Below, piece after piece: positions 2,705 to 54,180 of a DNA stretch of 64,000 bases. Made by a program: the position numbers and the translations under genes. Location of the stretch: positions 27,986 through 91,985 of the forward strand of contig JAFRSO010000035.1 in assembly GCA_017427545.1 (NCBI GenBank). Direction: 5' to 3'. This stretch comes from Selenomonadaceae bacterium. Its GTDB lineage: Bacteria > Bacillota > Negativicutes > Selenomonadales > Selenomonadaceae. The notes below the pieces were generated by a model. The model was not told the DNA's origin. It made no database searches and saw only the letters and a program-made list of their open reading frames with translations. Positions within the stretch are counted from its first letter, which is position 1. The number at the start of each line of letters is the position of its first letter.

Positions 2705-2739
2705 AAAAAAATAGCTGCCGGCGAGAGAGCTAGCAGCTA
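2705..2739 (-). terminator. Rho-independent terminator after TadG-like gene 1
   Basis: Minus strand shows stem TAGCTGC/GCAGCTA built from the heptamer array, followed by T7. Confidence 0.5.
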
Positions 2740-2759
2740 ACAGCTAACAGCTAGCAGCT
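2728..2759. repeat. Tandem heptamer array AGCTARC, about 4.5 copies
   Basis: AGCTAGC AGCTAAC AGCTAAC AGCTAGC AGCT abuts the stop codon of the 2759-5077 gene. Confidence 0.8.
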
Positions 2760-5077
2760 TATATCCAATCGTCTGAATTGGATTCGGTCTTCGTCAACAA
2801 AAATTCGTGAGGCTTTCGAGTTCCGTCCGATACTTTGTGCAACGTGAGCAAGTTGTATTGCAGTCCCAACCTGCCGTAATCTTCGCAGAAATATATTTTG
2901 TTCCCGTATTCGTCATAAAGCGGCACGGGCTTTCCGTCAGAATCAAGCAAGGGCACTCGCGCATGGGCTGTATCTTTTTTCGGATATTGCGTTCGGGAAG
3001 AATCAGTAGCCGGCTTATCGTACAATTTCACTTTATCCCAATCGGTTATTCGAGTGCCGTTCTTATCGTAAAGCGGGATTAATTCTTCCTCGTCCCTGTC
3101 AGTCAAAGGAACCATATCACCGTTCGCGTCGTAATGAATGTACGTAAATTCCAAATCCGTCTCAATGTTAAACCTCCTGAATTTCGACGCCGAGGACAGA
3201 TAGAATTGCTCCAACTTGTCTCTTAACGCCAAATAATCGCCGTCCACCAAAAACGTCTGAACATTATTTTTGCTGTCGACTTTATATGTCGTCCGTTTGG
3301 AATTCACCGTGTAAGCTGCTGTGGAAGTTGAGTAAGTTTTATCGAGTGCTCTGAATTCTTTGGCGATAATGAACCCTTCAAAAGTGTGATTGGTGCCGCT
3401 GCCGTCACCGACGCCCTTGCCGTTGCCATTTATGACGACGGGGACATCCGGCATATACAGCACGCCTTTAAAATCCGCGTTGAGATTCAAGATAACGGGC
3501 ATAGGCTCGCGGTCTTCCAAAGGGCCGTCATAATAGAAAATCAGCGGGCGTTTATCGGTAGCCAAGTTTGAAACATTTATGTTGATGATAATCTGTTGAG
3601 GCGGGTTACCTTGATTACCACCGTTCGCATTATGAGCCGGCTCGCTTTCAATTCGGATATACAACGGGTCATCATTTTTCCCGCTGCGAACATCATACGC
3701 CGCATTAACATTTATCAGCGCATGTGGTCTTTTCGAGGGATTACGGAGCTCACTGTAACTTGTACTTTCGGGGTAAAAGTCAAGAAATAATCGGTTAACG
3801 TCTGTAATTTTTGATTTATTAAGTTCGGTATCTTTTATCTCTAAAGATTTTGCAGTGGTCTTGCTAAATTGGATATATTTCATGGTGACATTTCCGTAAA
3901 CATCTTTGTATTTATTGTACGAAACAGACCAATCGCCGTCATAAGCATTTTTGGCGCGCACATACTCCATTTGCTGCCACAAGGTTATATTATTCATGGG
4001 CTTTCTGGTTTCAGTTGGCGGAGTGGTTTCAGTCGTCGAAGTGCCGCCGCCATTTTTTGAAGTGGTTTCAGTCGTCGAATCATTGCCTTTTGACGAATCA
4101 TTATCACTATCCGAATCATTGCCGCCTGATGAATCATTGCCGCCCGTCGAAGTCTTTTCAGTCGTCGAAGTCTTTTCAGTTGCAGAAGTTTCTTCAGTCG
4201 TCGGAGTGGTTGATTTTTTCCAGACGGCATAAAGGGTTACGGATTGTTCTTCGCCGAACAACTTAGCCACTTCCGAGGCCACCAACTGTTTGCCGTCGTA
4301 TATATAGGTGCCGGAATTGTCTGCTATCGTGTTCCAACCGAGAAATTCATAGCCGTTGAGTGTGGGACTGCCGTAATCTGATGAGACGGTCACCAATTCT
4401 TTATTTTCGGTAATTTTTTCCAGAGAGTTAAGATTTTTCGTCGAAGTCGTTGTATCACCAAAACTGCCGCCATTTGATTCAAACACAAGCTTTAAACTAC
4501 CGTCGGTGGTAACTTCGGGTTTCGTCAGCATGACAATGGCAATGACCGGCGCGTTCATGAAGTCAAACCAGCCGGGTAAAAATAAATGTTGAACATTTTC
4601 CGCCAGATGAATGACGTAATAGGAATTTTGACCGACCTTGTAAATGTTGGGCGTCATCTTAATTTCCGAACTGCCGCCAATGCCCCAGCTGTCAGTTATC
4701 GTGTAAGAGGTAATGTTATTGGTATTTTTGACAGTCAGGGCATCGGTGTCGAAGGAAAGATTTTTCAGCACATAAGCTGCCGCCTCTTTATCGCCAATTT
4801 CAGTGGTTAAGCTCGTACCGGTTTCATTGCCCTCATCAGCATAAAAAGTATCGACGAGGTAAATCGCGTCCGAGTCGTATTCGGAAAAATTTTCGTCGTC
4901 TTTAATCAAAGCACGTGCTCCCGCCAAAGCTGCCGCGTCCGCCGCATTTTGGAGCCTGGAGACGTTCAGATAATACCAGCCCAAATCCAAACCTACACCG
5001 ACGAACAAGACTAGAACCGGAATCAGCAAGGCGTAAAGCAACATAACTTGCCCGCGTTGTTCAATATCCCTGCACAT
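2759..5077 (-). CDS. Large TadG/TadE-like (Tad_N domain) surface protein, paralogue 1 (intact)
   Basis: 785-aa ORF. Likely start is ATG 5077 (MCRDIEQRGQVML), behind the SD GGAGTGG shared by all three paralogues. The N-terminus RGQVMLLYALLIPVLVLFVGVGLDLGWYYLNVSRLQNAADAAALAGA fits the Tad_N pattern. The middle has a Listeria-Bacteroides-type repeat (LNGYEFLGWNT...LYAVWKK) and an S/T/D-rich linker. Confidence 0.8.
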   Translation of the reverse strand: MCRDIEQRGQVMLLYALLIPVLVLFVGVGLDLGWYYLNVSRLQNAADAAALAGARALIKDDENFSEYDSDAIYLVDTFYADEGNETGTSLTTEIGDKEAAAYVLKNLSFDTDALTVKNTNNITSYTITDSWGIGGSSEIKMTPNIYKVGQNSYYVIHLAENVQHLFLPGWFDFMNAPVIAIVMLTKPEVTTDGSLKLVFESNGGSFGDTTTSTKNLNSLEKITENKELVTVSSDYGSPTLNGYEFLGWNTIADNSGTYIYDGKQLVASEVAKLFGEEQSVTLYAVWKKSTTPTTEETSATEKTSTTEKTSTGGNDSSGGNDSDSDNDSSKGNDSTTETTSKNGGGTSTTETTPPTETRKPMNNITLWQQMEYVRAKNAYDGDWSVSYNKYKDVYGNVTMKYIQFSKTTAKSLEIKDTELNKSKITDVNRLFLDFYPESTSYSELRNPSKRPHALINVNAAYDVRSGKNDDPLYIRIESEPAHNANGGNQGNPPQQIIININVSNLATDKRPLIFYYDGPLEDREPMPVILNLNADFKGVLYMPDVPVVINGNGKGVGDGSGTNHTFEGFIIAKEFRALDKTYSTSTAAYTVNSKRTTYKVDSKNNVQTFLVDGDYLALRDKLEQFYLSSASKFRRFNIETDLEFTYIHYDANGDMVPLTDRDEEELIPLYDKNGTRITDWDKVKLYDKPATDSSRTQYPKKDTAHARVPLLDSDGKPVPLYDEYGNKIYFCEDYGRLGLQYNLLTLHKVSDGTRKPHEFLLTKTESNSDDWI

Positions 5078-5103
5078 CGGTGCCACTCCCCTTAAATAAT
5101 CAA

Positions 5104-52891: not shown

Positions 52892-53008
52892 GACGCCTCC
52901 CGAAATTTTTTGGCAAGTATACCACGCTAAAATTTTTTTGTCACTTGACGATAAAAATTTGCACTGAAAAAAATTTATGATATTATACGGCGCGGGAGGT
53001 CAAGCGTC

Positions 53009-54130
53009 GTGGAAAAGTATTATATGGCGGCAATGGGTGGCGCAGATGGTTTCGGCAACAAGAGTATTAAAAAGCTCATGGATTTTTGCAAAAGTGCAAA
53101 GGCTGCGTGGTCGGCCGACATTGACGATTTGATTCACGCGGGAATTATGCCCAAAGCGTTGAATGCTTTTATTTCCTTCCGCGGCAAACATCCCAATGCG
53201 CCGGAAAAACTTTTCAGTTATTGTGAGCGGCACGAATTTAACCTTTGCTCATTTCTCGACGAAGATTATCCGCCGATTCTCAAGGAGCTTGATAAAGATG
53301 TTCCGCCAATGTTTTTTTACTATCGCGGCAAATTGGAACCGCTCGCGCAGAGGATTGCGATTGTCGGTTCACGGGAAAATACGTCTTACGGTCAGAACGT
53401 CGCGTTGGAGTTGGGCGAACAGCTGGCCGCAGTCGGCTTTACCATAGTCAGCGGGGCGGCTCGCGGCATTGATTCTTTTGCTCACCGCGGCGCATTGAAA
53501 TCCGGCCGGACTGTTGCAGTTTTGGGTTGCGGAATAGAAATTGCCTTCCGCAGTTATAAGAGAAAATTTTTCGAGGAGATTACTGAAAACGGCGTCGTCC
53601 TCAGCGAATTTCCTCCGCAACTTCCGCCTAATCAGGGAACTTTTCCATCACGCAACAGAGTTATTGCGGGGCTTAGTCGAGGCGTTATCATTGTCGAGGC
53701 CGGCAAAAAAAGTGGTGCGCTTCTCACGACGAAATACGCCCTTGAATATAATCGTGACGTTTTCGCAATCCCCGGAGACATTTACGCGGAGAAAAGCAAA
53801 GGTTGCAACGAGTTGATTCGTGCCGGGGCGACGCTGATTAAAAGTGCGGCGGATGTTTTGGACGAATATGACATTGCCATTCCGCAGCTGAAAAATAAAT
53901 CGGAGCAATCTGTCGAATTAAAACCCGTCAAGCCGAAGCCCAATCCGACTGACCTTGAGGGCGTCGCGGCAAAAGTTTTTGAAATTATTCCGTCCGACAA
54001 ATTCATCACGGACGACGAAATTTTAATGGCGGTCGAGGAATTAGATCCGAGTGAGTTGCCGAACATCATGCTTGATTTGGAAATGAAAAATTACATCGTC
54101 GAAGAGGCGGGAAGATATAAGAGAAAGTAG
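53009..54130 (+). CDS. dprA: DNA-processing protein DprA (Smf)
   Basis: 373-aa ORF. IAIVGSRENTSYG, VSGAARGIDSFAHRGAL and VIIVEAGKKSGALLT. Confidence 0.9.
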   Translation: MEKYYMAAMGGADGFGNKSIKKLMDFCKSAKAAWSADIDDLIHAGIMPKALNAFISFRGKHPNAPEKLFSYCERHEFNLCSFLDEDYPPILKELDKDVPPMFFYYRGKLEPLAQRIAIVGSRENTSYGQNVALELGEQLAAVGFTIVSGAARGIDSFAHRGALKSGRTVAVLGCGIEIAFRSYKRKFFEEITENGVVLSEFPPQLPPNQGTFPSRNRVIAGLSRGVIIVEAGKKSGALLTTKYALEYNRDVFAIPGDIYAEKSKGCNELIRAGATLIKSAADVLDEYDIAIPQLKNKSEQSVELKPVKPKPNPTDLEGVAAKVFEIIPSDKFITDDEILMAVEELDPSELPNIMLDLEMKNYIVEEAGRYKRK

Positions 54131-54180
54131 GGATTAGGGAGTTAAACTTGTTCCTTGTTCCTTATTCCTTGTTCCTTAAC
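54128..54180. repeat. Heptamer arrays (TAGGGAT-type; TTGTTCC/TTATTCC x4)
   Basis: TAGGGATTAGGGAGTTAAACTTGTTCCTTGTTCCTTATTCCTTGTTCCTTAAC starts on the dprA TAG. Confidence 0.8.

Follow-up and report, generated by a model that had tools for sequence, protein, structure and literature searches.

The tandem heptanucleotide arrays that lie on gene boundaries throughout a 64,000-nucleotide (nt) stretch of Selenomonadaceae DNA (contig JAFRSO010000035.1 of assembly GCA_017427545.1, positions 27,986 to 91,985; hereafter the window) are best interpreted, with a confidence a little above even, as the Quinella version of heptanucleotide repeats: fast-turnover selfish or neutral cassettes, and not conserved regulators. 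The CysS protein encoded at 17785–19311 is 81–90% identical to those of Quinella spp. and of uncultured Selenomonadales and Selenomonadaceae rumen metagenome-assembled genomes (MAGs), and ∼60–65% identical to those of Selenomonas and Mitsuokella; by this measure the window belongs to the Quinella clade (Selenomonadaceae, rumen), and the initial idea of a filamentous cyanobacterium was rejected. None of the papers searched connects Quinella with heptamer repeats, and the presence of such arrays in Quinella seems to have gone unreported. The words ‘tandem’ and ‘intergenic’ are never used in the Quinella genome paper, and ‘repeat’ is used once (PMC9585023).

Arrays were detected with Tandem Repeats Finder, and all arrays and their flanks were then inspected by sequence. 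A preliminary description of the window had listed 19 arrays, one of them of 8-mers. All 19 were recovered, with a period of 7 or 14 at every heptamer coordinate and a period of 8 at 48210–48265. The program returned 26 rows of period 7, with 2.3–6.4 copies per row; the compound block at 23451–23517 amounts to ∼9.5 units. Two tracts had been missed, an array at 13415–13447 (CTAATCC/CTGCTCC, with the 14-mer pattern seen at 31045–31077) and a degenerate array near 33090–33115. Exact period-7 runs of at least 16 nt numbered 17 in the window, against 0.3 expected from dinucleotide-preserving shuffles, and exact runs of the other periods in the 4–12 range numbered 0–2 each. The 64 kb holds at least nine unit families; AATTAGG was present at four sites, and AAGGAAC and AGCTNNN at five each. 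Shared array edges, TCAATTAGGAATKAGGAAT and ACTTGTTCCTT...TTCCTTAA, were found as previously given. The source is a short-read metagenome assembly; nothing was found in support of an origin by assembly or sequencing error. Array lengths (19–74 nt) fit within typical short reads, the same arrays recurred base for base in as many as 12 independent assemblies drawn from other samples and projects, and the class was seen in dozens of MAGs from other studies. These observations refute an artefactual origin for practical purposes, leaving it next to no probability.

The arrays were compared with Pfam-supported open reading frames (ORFs) and with the gene calls supplied with related contigs. Every array in the window was intergenic, overlapped or abutted a stop codon, or lay in a fragmented RTX gene (47734–50255). 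The location first proposed for them thus holds against curated and called genes alike, with the nuance that an 8-mer hairpin falls inside the 3′ end of a called RTX ORF (48185–49525). About ten genes terminated in an array or no more than 3 nt from one: a Tad gene (2759), the 13429 gene, an acyltransferase gene (17728), an IF2_N-domain gene (22467), the ORF ending at 44241, and the genes for an ABC ATPase (44272), an SBP (39209), DUF805 (50347), ProC (50762) and DprA (54130). Many arrays were directly upstream of a Shine–Dalgarno sequence, and gaps of 13–27 nt separated arrays from the starts of cysS, CorA, holA, alr, GT, AmiC-like, permease, DUF805 and topA genes. The avoidance of intact coding sequence was confirmed in a clade sample of 621 kb, consisting of the window and 36 related loci. 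Interiors of long stop-to-stop ORFs make up 81% of this DNA, and held 3 of 60 period-7 arrays, whereas 45 of 52 arrays with a period divisible by 3 lay in them. Of the three exceptions, two were within ∼115 nt of the 5′ end of the stop-to-stop ORF and probably lie upstream of the true start; the third (locus L021; L numbers denote related loci and contigs) was 359 nt into the ORF, with an ATG directly after the array. Junctions of all types were occupied at similar frequency (tandem 27/359, divergent 8/76, convergent 5/81).

Turnover of the arrays was apparent from comparison of strains, which were found via contigs encoding identical DUF805, DUF896, ABC-permease or CysS proteins. In this way as many as 12 further assemblies of the species were obtained, 96.7–99.8% identical to the window. 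Arrays made up only 1.7% of aligned columns but contributed 20% of all strain differences. The per-site difference was 10.2% in arrays as compared with 0.74%, and the ratio rose to 42–74 fold in L087 and L104, the closest strains that differ. Units had been gained or lost at 5 of 18 sites: 17713 (+1 unit), 24594 (−15 nt), 38134 (+13 nt), 50730 (+7 nt) and 23451 (−1 unit, or +1 and −2). Whole-cassette replacement affected five cassettes in four intergenic regions, between flanks 98–100% identical, namely 17713 (L104), 44228 (L100–L102), 54128 (three alleles) and both hairpins at 39040–39206 (L100 and L102). The last of these swaps keeps the 17-nt spacer between the two hairpins and the outermost TAAGG...CCTTAAC, and in all three alleles at 54128 the first TAG is the dprA stop codon. 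No further alleles of this dprA–topA site were found in a metagenome scan, and no target-site duplication was seen at the swapped sites. Six sites were invariant in all strains seen.

Incoming cassettes had counterparts elsewhere. The L100 cassette at the 39040 site, also present in L102, is 95.8% identical over 48 nt to window positions 31015–31062, a non-allelic locus, and the L100 cassette at 39133 matches a cassette at another locus of a different species (L013) with 86% identity over 71 nt. At 54128, L087 shares its allele with a more distant strain, L092. Recurrence at non-allelic loci and in other species, together with swapping between strains, supports the original proposal that the arrays behave as dispersed repeats and not as independent slippage events. 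Conservation at orthologous intergenic regions of relatives, which had been suggested as a check, was not observed: across 36 species-level loci at the cysS junction occupancy was not conserved, most Quinella-clade genomes had no array upstream of cysS, and occupancy differed even between strains.

The composition of the units is strongly biased. In the clade sample, 44 of 60 consensus units carried a stop on both strands, as compared with 15–20% expected, and the earlier claim of two-strand stops is upheld. TAG and CTA were present in 24 and 32 units, respectively (∼7 expected per strand), and TAA and TTA in 25 and 18 (∼12 expected per strand). TGA and TCA, with ∼7 expected per strand, were depleted to 2 units each. 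Among the gene stops of the window, however, TGA is the most frequent (23 TGA, 19 TAA and 11 TAG). A limited vocabulary recurs across species at different loci; 30 canonical units account for the 60 arrays, and AATTAGG alone was found in five genomes. Four superfamilies, TAGG[AG]NN (∼35/60), AGCTNNN (∼10), TAGTGRT (5) and AATGCGT (3), have in common a YTAR core that reads CTAG, TTAG or CTAA. Within the 53 array strands that have TAG in the consensus at a 7-nt period, the T deviated in 9.3% of units and the A and G in 3.7%. The commonest change was T to G, and the resulting GAG abolishes the stop. Arrays between divergent genes carried stops on both strands in 10 of 12 cases.

About half of the arrays were inverted pairs around an A/T-rich loop (10 pairs among ∼20 window cassettes). 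In each pair the G-rich, TAG-bearing arm was 5′ and the C-rich, CTA-bearing arm 3′, which by symmetry is true on both strands. This polarity held for 13 of 13 pairs in the Quinella clade with a gap of no more than 20 nt, and, when the scan was loosened to gaps of up to 35 nt and to period-8 pairs, for all 17 pairs. It also held for 10 of 10 pairs of opposite skew in IMG/VR contigs, giving a count of 23/23 with the independent viral contigs included. The arms are mostly of the same unit family but out of register, and their complementarity is often poor. Short conserved outer ends occur, (G)TTAAGG...CCTTAAC and CAATTAGG...CCTAATTG. When the 10 window pairs were folded and compared with shuffles, five were strong (z −4.7 to −9.2), four marginal (−1.7 to −2.2) and one showed no excess stability. 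The suggestion that the arrays form RNA hairpins consequently stands for about half of them, since only these 5 of the 10 pairs tested folded significantly better than shuffles.

Arrays were present but patchy at other Quinella-clade loci (nine in L011, five each in L013 and L031, three in L018). They were essentially absent from 785 kb of other Selenomonadaceae and nearly absent from Selenomonas and Mitsuokella loci. The proposal that the repeats are lineage-specific nonetheless failed when viral contigs were searched. (AATTAGG)3 was found in 51 stretches, and (TAGGAAC)3 in 7, in IMG/VR contigs of 27–70% GC that carry many more heptamer arrays, of TAACTGA type, GAAAGTA, CTAATCA/CTAACCA and TAGGAAG. 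TAACTGA-type arrays are next to AATTAGG arrays in L122, L132, L143, L152 and L153. The contig L128 (IMGVR_UViG_3300021256_000620, 1–13828; 64% GC) has 14 heptamer arrays in 13.8 kb and encodes a phage portal and an HK97-type capsid. At least four G-rich to C-rich inverted pairs lie between its phage genes, with units overlapping those of Quinella (AATTAGG, TAGGAAG, GGAGTTA). Its portal protein is closest, at 69% identity, to those of prophages of uncultured Clostridia MAGs. Because the same units and the same polarity occur in contigs of 27–70% GC, the heptamer phenomenon is not specific to the Quinella lineage, and its unit vocabulary is shared across very different genomes.

A separate iterated sequence does appear to be lineage-bound. 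The palindrome AAAATTTT occurs 83 times in the window, in coding and non-coding DNA, as compared with 14.6 expected from shuffles (for example at 810, 15081, 24472, 39000 and 52929). TTTTAAAA occurs once, and AAATTT is present 220 times against 29 for TTTAAA. The frequency of AAAATTTT per 10 kb is 13.0 in the window, with a median of 13.6 at Quinella-clade loci and 0.47 in other Selenomonadaceae. By these counts it is a lineage-specific, highly iterated palindrome, comparable in form to cyanobacterial HIP1.

We interpret these observations as reflecting a genome-wide population of short, non-coding cassettes of 7-nt units with a YTAR core, mostly TAGG[AG]NN, AGCTNNN and TAGTGRT, each taking the form of a single array or of two inverted arrays around an A/T-rich loop. 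Such cassettes persist only at places that can tolerate an insert full of stops and frameshifts: intergenic DNA, the final few codons of ORFs and a broken gene. Units would be gained and lost by slipped-strand mispairing, and intrastrand template switching between the quasi-palindromic arms may keep both in one family. Spread to new sites would proceed by non-allelic copying, through gene conversion or a transposition-like step, and also by recombination between strains. Effects on expression are real but incidental; arrays supply the stop and last residues of ∼10 genes, leader and 3′ hairpins and promoter-like hexamers, and they account for a split RTX gene. Individual cassettes may have been co-opted for a function. 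A classical phase-variation locus, in which a contingency repeat switches a surface or virulence gene from within its ORF or promoter spacer, was considered and rejected, the neighbours being housekeeping genes (cysS, holA, alr, proC, dprA, topA) and the arrays lying outside intact ORFs. Copy number had changed at 5 of 18 sites, but whole-cassette replacement was as common.

Several observations weigh against this interpretation. The invariant polarity of the arms (23/23) is not predicted by simple slippage. Neither the preference for TAG over TGA nor the greater firmness of A and G than of T is predicted by slippage either, and both point to a specific generator or reader. Genomes that differ widely in GC share the same heptamers, which argues for a sequence-specific constraint or for horizontal transfer. 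Some cassettes may have acquired a role, since several do not vary among the strains seen and five are far more stable as hairpins than shuffled sequence. Many arrays are 13–27 nt from a start codon, as are TAACTGA repeats, for which a translational role has been proposed. The window and the strain loci revealed neither a transposase nor a target-site duplication, nor any other direct sign of how cassettes are copied. Finally, the census covers the 64-kb window and the flanks of three genes rather than a whole genome.

That the cassettes are non-autonomous mobile elements, similar to REPINs (doublets of repetitive extragenic palindromic (REP) sequences) or to miniature inverted-repeat transposable elements (MITEs), and moved by a transposase encoded elsewhere or on phages, is unlikely though far from negligible. 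The candidate mover would be an IS200/IS605-type Y1 transposase, a REP-associated tyrosine transposase (RAYT), recognizing a hairpin with a conserved foot tetranucleotide. Whole units of purine-rich arm, loop and pyrimidine-rich arm are indeed copied and exchanged, as extragenic inverted hairpin doublets like REPINs (PMC3116915). Conserved outer ends occur ((G)TTAAGG...CCTTAAC and CAATTAGG...CCTAATTG), cassettes are present in phage-like contigs, and one is inserted in coding sequence with inverted flanks of 10–11 nt. However, the swapped sites show no visible target-site duplication, and the arms are tandem heptamers of many families rather than one conserved REP and are often poorly complementary. 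The inverted flank in the RTX gene looks copied from the target, unlike a fixed terminal repeat. No transposase domain was found among the called genes of the window region, a weak point given that the region is only 64 kb. Repair of DNA breaks could also leave inverted arrays, if a lineage-independent activity added G-rich, TAG-phased heptamers to both 3′ ends and the ends were then joined, sometimes with filler. Alone among the models considered, this directly predicts the 23/23 polarity, in which the G-rich sequence of either strand points 5′ to 3′ at the centre, as in a head-to-head telomere fusion. It would fit arms of the same family that are out of register, an array standing in place of a ∼115-nt deletion inside a dispersed element, and the inverted duplication of target sequence that flanks the RTX insertion. 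It is wholly inferential; no enzyme was found, and we know of none that adds TAG-phased heptamers to break ends. Single arrays and direct compound arrays such as 23451–23517 require extra assumptions, and cassettes are demonstrably copied as units. We regard it as highly improbable.

A role as cis-acting RNA elements is a further alternative that we hold to be rather doubtful. The XAG triplets, spaced at 7 nt, would be bound by an oligomeric RNA-binding protein of the HutP or TRAP type that opens or closes the hairpins for antitermination or translational control, or AGGRR sequences would serve as Shine–Dalgarno decoys or standby sites. HutP binds (UAG-N4)x3 at two sites 12–17 nt apart and recognizes the A and G (PMC2425495). 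These are the better conserved TAG positions in the arrays, where T to G is the commonest change; moreover, the TAG arm is always 5′, as a hairpin-blocking protein would require, and many arrays are just upstream of a Shine–Dalgarno sequence. In Nostoc, heptamer repeats affect how recF and recO are expressed (bioRxiv 10.1101/2022.06.06.494920). Against such a role, single arrays between co-oriented genes showed no orientation preference on the transcribed strand (12 G-rich and 11 C-rich on the sense strand), arrays were present at all junction types, and neither species nor strains agreed in which sites were occupied. Some families lack AGG or have AAG cores, and only half of the pairs fold significantly. 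With a HutP query verified against PDB, tblastn detected no homologue in the 1.7 Mb of DNA searched; a large protein search returned Bacillaceae only, and is uninformative for Quinella. The preliminary description had itself favoured frame-independent translation stops at cistron borders, that is, arrays selected as insulators. This is consistent with the both-strand stops of 44/60 units (15–20% expected), with the ∼10 genes that end in or at an array, and with the 5′ position of the G-rich arm on both strands, whereby a ribosome arriving from either side meets the TAG arm first. It is not supported by the unit composition, as TGA, the commonest gene stop, is depleted and the T of TAG is its least conserved base. 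Arrays at divergent junctions also speak against it, being equally common (8/76) and stop-laden (10/12) without an upstream ORF reading in. Most orthologous junctions in related species have no array, and where an allele or species lacks the array, the neighbouring gene still ends in an ordinary stop. We consider selected termination very unlikely. Unit bias, turnover, orientation and the junction tests thus disfavour both selection for termination and a strand-specific RNA role as general explanations.

With turnover of selfish or neutral cassettes retained as the favoured explanation, three features are unexplained and seem to be new: the polarity of the arms, the TAG-not-TGA core with its firmer A and G, and the sharing of the same heptamers across base compositions. 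A speculative extension, to which we attach a low probability, is that the cassettes are the product or the target of a dedicated sequence-specific system shared by distant bacteria and phages. This may be an activity that writes G-rich, TAG-phased 7-nt repeats on the 3′ ends of DNA; the 5′ position of the G-rich arm in 23/23 pairs, as in a head-to-head telomere fusion, would then be accounted for. Alternatively, it may be an oligomeric protein, by analogy HutP-like, that reads XAG at 7-nt spacing. The occurrence of AATTAGG, TAGGAAN, GAAAGTA and CTAATCA alongside TAACTGA in genomes of 27–70% GC is consistent with such a system. Reported heptamer-rich hosts, namely Beggiatoaceae, Thiomargarita and filamentous cyanobacteria, are very large or filamentous; that Quinella joins them, and has the HIP1-like AAAATTTT, is also consistent with it.

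Individual arrays of the window illustrate the range of forms. The first, a single array of AGCTARC x4.6 at 2728–2759, starts at the stop codon of a Tad-like gene (2759–5116, minus strand). This gene is one of three large Tad/TadE-like genes (785, 980 and 803 aa) that occupy 2759–11390 on the minus strand with smaller ones. They form direct repeats of ∼3.1 kb, 70–93% identical, and the region is a recently triplicated pilus-related module. The CTAATCC/CTGCTCC array at 13415–13447 (14-mer x2.4) fills a 16-nt gap between two minus-strand genes, covers the last 19 nt of the 13429–13878 ORF and was invariant in four strains. The single AAGGAAC array at 13916–13949, also invariant in four strains, provides a −35-like TTGTTC on its minus strand; a TATAAT follows 17 nt later, upstream of the start at 13878. 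At 15127–15153, a single array of AATTCCT x3.6 separates divergent PHP (minus) and GntR (plus) genes, with a perfect match to a promoter (TTGACA-16-TATAAT) ∼18 nt downstream of it; it has one substitution in one of six strains.

The inverted pair at 17713–17771 ((A)GAAAGT x2.3, loop, TTTCTAC x4.9) contains the acyltransferase stop (17728) in its 5′ arm and reaches the cysS Shine–Dalgarno sequence with its 3′ arm. Its hairpin is predicted to be stable (−28.5 kcal/mol, z −6.1), and three alleles were seen, with one unit more in L109 and the whole cassette replaced in L104. The single array AATTCCT x2.6 at 22452–22470 encodes the last five codons and the stop of the IF2_N-domain gene and is situated in the 6-nt gap that precedes a convergent CorA gene. 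It directly follows the Ala/Glu-rich, in-frame 12/24-nt repeats (22366–22437) of this protein, whose called length varies between strains (484 and 476 aa). Between the holA stop and the CorA start (minus strand), the compound direct array at 23451–23517 (TAGCTKY x2–3 and CTAGTTC x6.4) begins directly after a −10-like TAAAAT, and its copy number differs in L104 and L109. Some arrays start right after such a TAAAAT, at 23517, 31078 and 50772 (minus strand). Between the divergent holA and alr genes, the two arrays at 24594–24667 (TTAGCTG x4.6 and CTTAAAG x4.6) form no significant hairpin (z +0.6), and the L109 allele is 15 nt shorter.

The inverted pair at 31014–31078 (AATKAGG x3.4, AAAAA loop, CCTAATC-type x4.7) lies between a canonical terminator (31128–31102) and the Shine–Dalgarno sequence of the 26575–30993 gene. 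Canonical terminator and promoter matches identified by scanning the window lie away from the arrays. The idea that the arrays are the intrinsic terminators of the window was rejected, as terminator-like sites were no commoner than in shuffles and the good ones were elsewhere. An Rfam search of the window found tRNA-Thr alone. Beside this tRNA gene is the single array CTTRTTC x3.6 (33338–33364), invariant in three strains.

Several arrays flank a dispersed intergenic element of ∼230 nt or take the place of its centre. Copies are at 13950–14180, 33100–33337, 12390–12533 (a variant) and 38160–38367 (inverted, centre replaced). The element contains the palindrome CTACTTTTCTTTG...CAAAGAAAAGTAG, and its end is formed by a terminator-like hairpin, GCCGTCATCC(A/T)TGACGGC, with a T-run behind it. 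It fitted no family in Rfam, the best hit (E = 0.023) falling far short of the gathering score. The AAGGAAC array abuts the first copy, and the CTTRTTC array lies between the second and tRNA-Thr. At 38237–38269, AGCTNNN x3.6–5 replaces the central ∼115 nt of the inverted copy. L100 has a different, undeleted variant of the element at site 38160, and alignment ruled it out as a simple pre-insertion state.

Nearby, the single array CTAATCA x3.3 at 38134–38156 is 13 nt upstream of the start of an AmiC-like gene (called start 38120), and is 13 nt longer in L100. The gene (36267–38120) encodes an N-acetylmuramoyl-L-alanine amidase with an AMIN domain and contains ∼20 tandem 24-nt (8-codon) units at 36895–37700. 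Called protein lengths of 601, 617 and 629 aa in different strains indicate that this in-frame repeat also varies. A HicA/HicB toxin–antitoxin pair is found at 34605–35138 (minus strand), between cbiD and an epimerase gene.

The two neighbouring hairpins that were exchanged together are both predicted to be stable. The pair at 39040–39110 (TTAGTGG x3.9, loop, CTAATCA x4.6; −30.1 kcal/mol, z −8.6) lies upstream of the ABC permease gene, 27 nt short of its start, and is swapped as a whole for a TAGGGAN/TTCCTNA cassette in L100 and L102. The pair at 39133–39206 (AAGGAAY x4.4, loop, CTTGTTC; −40.7 kcal/mol, z −9.2) comes to within 2 nt of the stop codon of the SBP gene (39209) and gives way in the same strains to a GGGAGAA-type cassette within the retained TAAGG...CCTTAAC. 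That SBP gene belongs to a run of five tandem paralogous SBP_bac_3 genes (39209–43364, minus strand; 61–82% DNA identity) upstream of one ABC permease gene; one copy is truncated (210 aa) in L087 and L099. At 44228–44270, between convergent genes, AATTAGG x3.7 and a short CTTGTTCC contain the end of the 43897–44241 ORF, and a different 77-nt cassette is present in L100–L102.

The RTX (HemolysinCabind) gene at 47734–50255 (minus strand) is split into at least four ORF fragments, and two of the breaks coincide with arrays. The 8-nt inverted pair at 48210–48265 (AGATTGCA x3.9, loop, CTTGCAAT x2.4) forms a stable predicted hairpin (z −7.5) and was invariant in 11 strains. The array at 49960–50015 (TAGCAGC/TAGAAAC x5.3) is inserted in the RTX reading frame and flanked by the inverted repeat CCGCCCGAATT / AATTCGGGCGG (10–11 nt). 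Its removal restores ...LNGGAGNDT... in the nonapeptide-repeat frame, and across nine assemblies all differences in the surrounding 1.3 kb fell within the array. L092 was considered as an empty site for this insertion, and was rejected when alignment showed a different downstream gene. A second RTX gene, at 31145–33052, is intact (635 aa).

Three cassettes near the end of the region contain stop codons. The pair at 50299–50352 (TAAGGAA x2.3, loop, AACTCCT x4.4) includes the DUF805 stop (50347), is followed by TATAAT and has a weak predicted hairpin (z −1.8). Its units differ in the 97%-identical strain L092, whose homology to the window stops at the array. The cassette at 50730–50772 (GAACTAG/TAGCAGC x5, the last unit inverted; hairpin z −4.7) contains the ProC stop (50762), comes to an end 17 nt before the DUF805 start, and has one more unit (+7 nt) in L092. 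At 54128–54180, TAGGGAK x2, TTAAA and CTTGTTC x4.4 begin with the dprA stop (54130) and end 16 nt before the topA start. The three alleles at this site, between near-identical flanks, are unrelated: the window type, a GAAAGTA type (L087, L092) and an 8-mer type (L091).

The question of where prokaryotic heptamer repeats come from and what they do has, to our knowledge, stood since short tandemly repeated repetitive (STRR) sequences were described in 1990. Quinella makes the problem more tractable, as many near-identical strains are represented in public rumen metagenomes and single mutational steps can be read directly: unit gain and loss, co-conversion of arms, cassette replacement and copying to new sites. 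Any model is now constrained by two regularities, the fixed polarity of the arms and a TAG-not-TGA core in which A and G are firmer than T. The arrays also have practical consequences. They alter C-termini, split genes and mislead ORF finding, as in the spurious starts at 38141 and 54155 and the ORF called through the 8-mer hairpin. Strain-level variation comes mainly from the arrays, which makes them possible typing markers for Quinella; this genus has been linked to low-methane sheep, and its cells have ∼60 times the volume of Escherichia coli (PMC9585023). Giant bacteria have genomes noted for unusual repeats (PMC10756260), and Quinella adds a heterotrophic member of the Bacillota to them.

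The preliminary description recognized no matching repeat family. Intergenic heptanucleotide arrays had, however, already been described, as STRR sequences, as LSSRs (long simple sequence repeats) and as TAACTGA repeats. The STRR sequences are reportedly heptanucleotide repeats of heterocystous cyanobacteria, described by Mazel and colleagues in 1990. Like the Quinella arrays they consist of tandem 7-nt units, of few families at many dispersed extragenic sites, with lineage-restricted abundance, and their function is unresolved. The host here is a rumen member of the Negativicutes rather than a heterocystous cyanobacterium, and the Quinella units have a TAG/YTAR core; no two-unit tandem of the canonical STRR units CCCCAGT, TTGGTCA or CAACAGT was present in the window or the 36 related loci. 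Half of the Quinella arrays are inverted pairs of fixed polarity, and strain-level cassette swapping is documented; we know of no report of either for STRR sequences.

TAACTGA repeats are found in marine Beggiatoaceae, some cyanobacteria and Bacteroidetes, and their scattered phylogeny suggests transfer (MacGregor, 2015; PMC4679880). They are intergenic, in 2–6 copies, and often a few nt upstream of start codons; that they place stops in all frames in one orientation, limiting ORF overlap, has already been argued (PMC4679880). The Quinella arrays are similarly intergenic and commonly 13–27 nt upstream of starts, and both classes occur in very large bacteria. TAACTGA repeats, however, have one dominant unit, as compared with at least nine families in 64 kb here, and this unit was absent from all Quinella-clade loci (the window and 36 related loci). 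Almost all are direct (169 direct sets and one indirect, with no predicted structure; PMC4679880), whereas about half of the Quinella arrays are inverted pairs. LSSRs, with units of 5–11 nt, are known to us from the account of Mrazek et al. (2007) given in PMC4679880. According to that account heptanucleotides are their commonest class in prokaryotes, those with units that are not a multiple of 3 are confined to non-coding DNA, and slippage is the proposed origin. The Quinella tracts match this account in being longer than chance, in their period and in lying outside coding DNA; as far as it goes, LSSRs are treated as local, whereas the Quinella cassettes are composite, copied between loci and species, and constrained in their units by the TAG core.

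Among mobile DNA, REP sequences, bacterial interspersed mosaic elements (BIMEs) and REPINs with their RAYT transposases are regarded as selfish miniature elements (Bertels and Rainey, 2011; PMC3116915). The Quinella cassettes resemble REPINs in being extragenic and dispersed in many strain-variable copies (PMC3116915); 10 of the ∼20 window cassettes are inverted doublets, of which five fold with z below −4.6. The arm of a REPIN, however, is one conserved imperfect palindrome of 20–35 nt and not tandem heptamers of many families. A genome has one to three REPIN families, each tied to a RAYT gene, and no RAYT was found among the called genes of the 64 kb. MITEs are defined by fixed terminal inverted repeats and a target-site duplication; the cassettes show short conserved outer ends (TTAAGG/CCTTAA and CAATTAGG/CCTAATTG), but no duplication was seen at the swapped sites. 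With HutP and TRAP sites the arrays share repeated XAG triplets, which for HutP are spaced by 4 nt (a 7-nt period), three per site, with two sites around a linker that includes the terminator stem (PMC2425495). Those are single, conserved, strand-specific sites beside a cognate gene, as opposed to dozens of non-conserved, orientation-indifferent arrays in Quinella. The Quinella arrays thus fit the structural definition of the heptanucleotide repeat class, and not the sequence or host definitions of STRR sequences or TAACTGA repeats.

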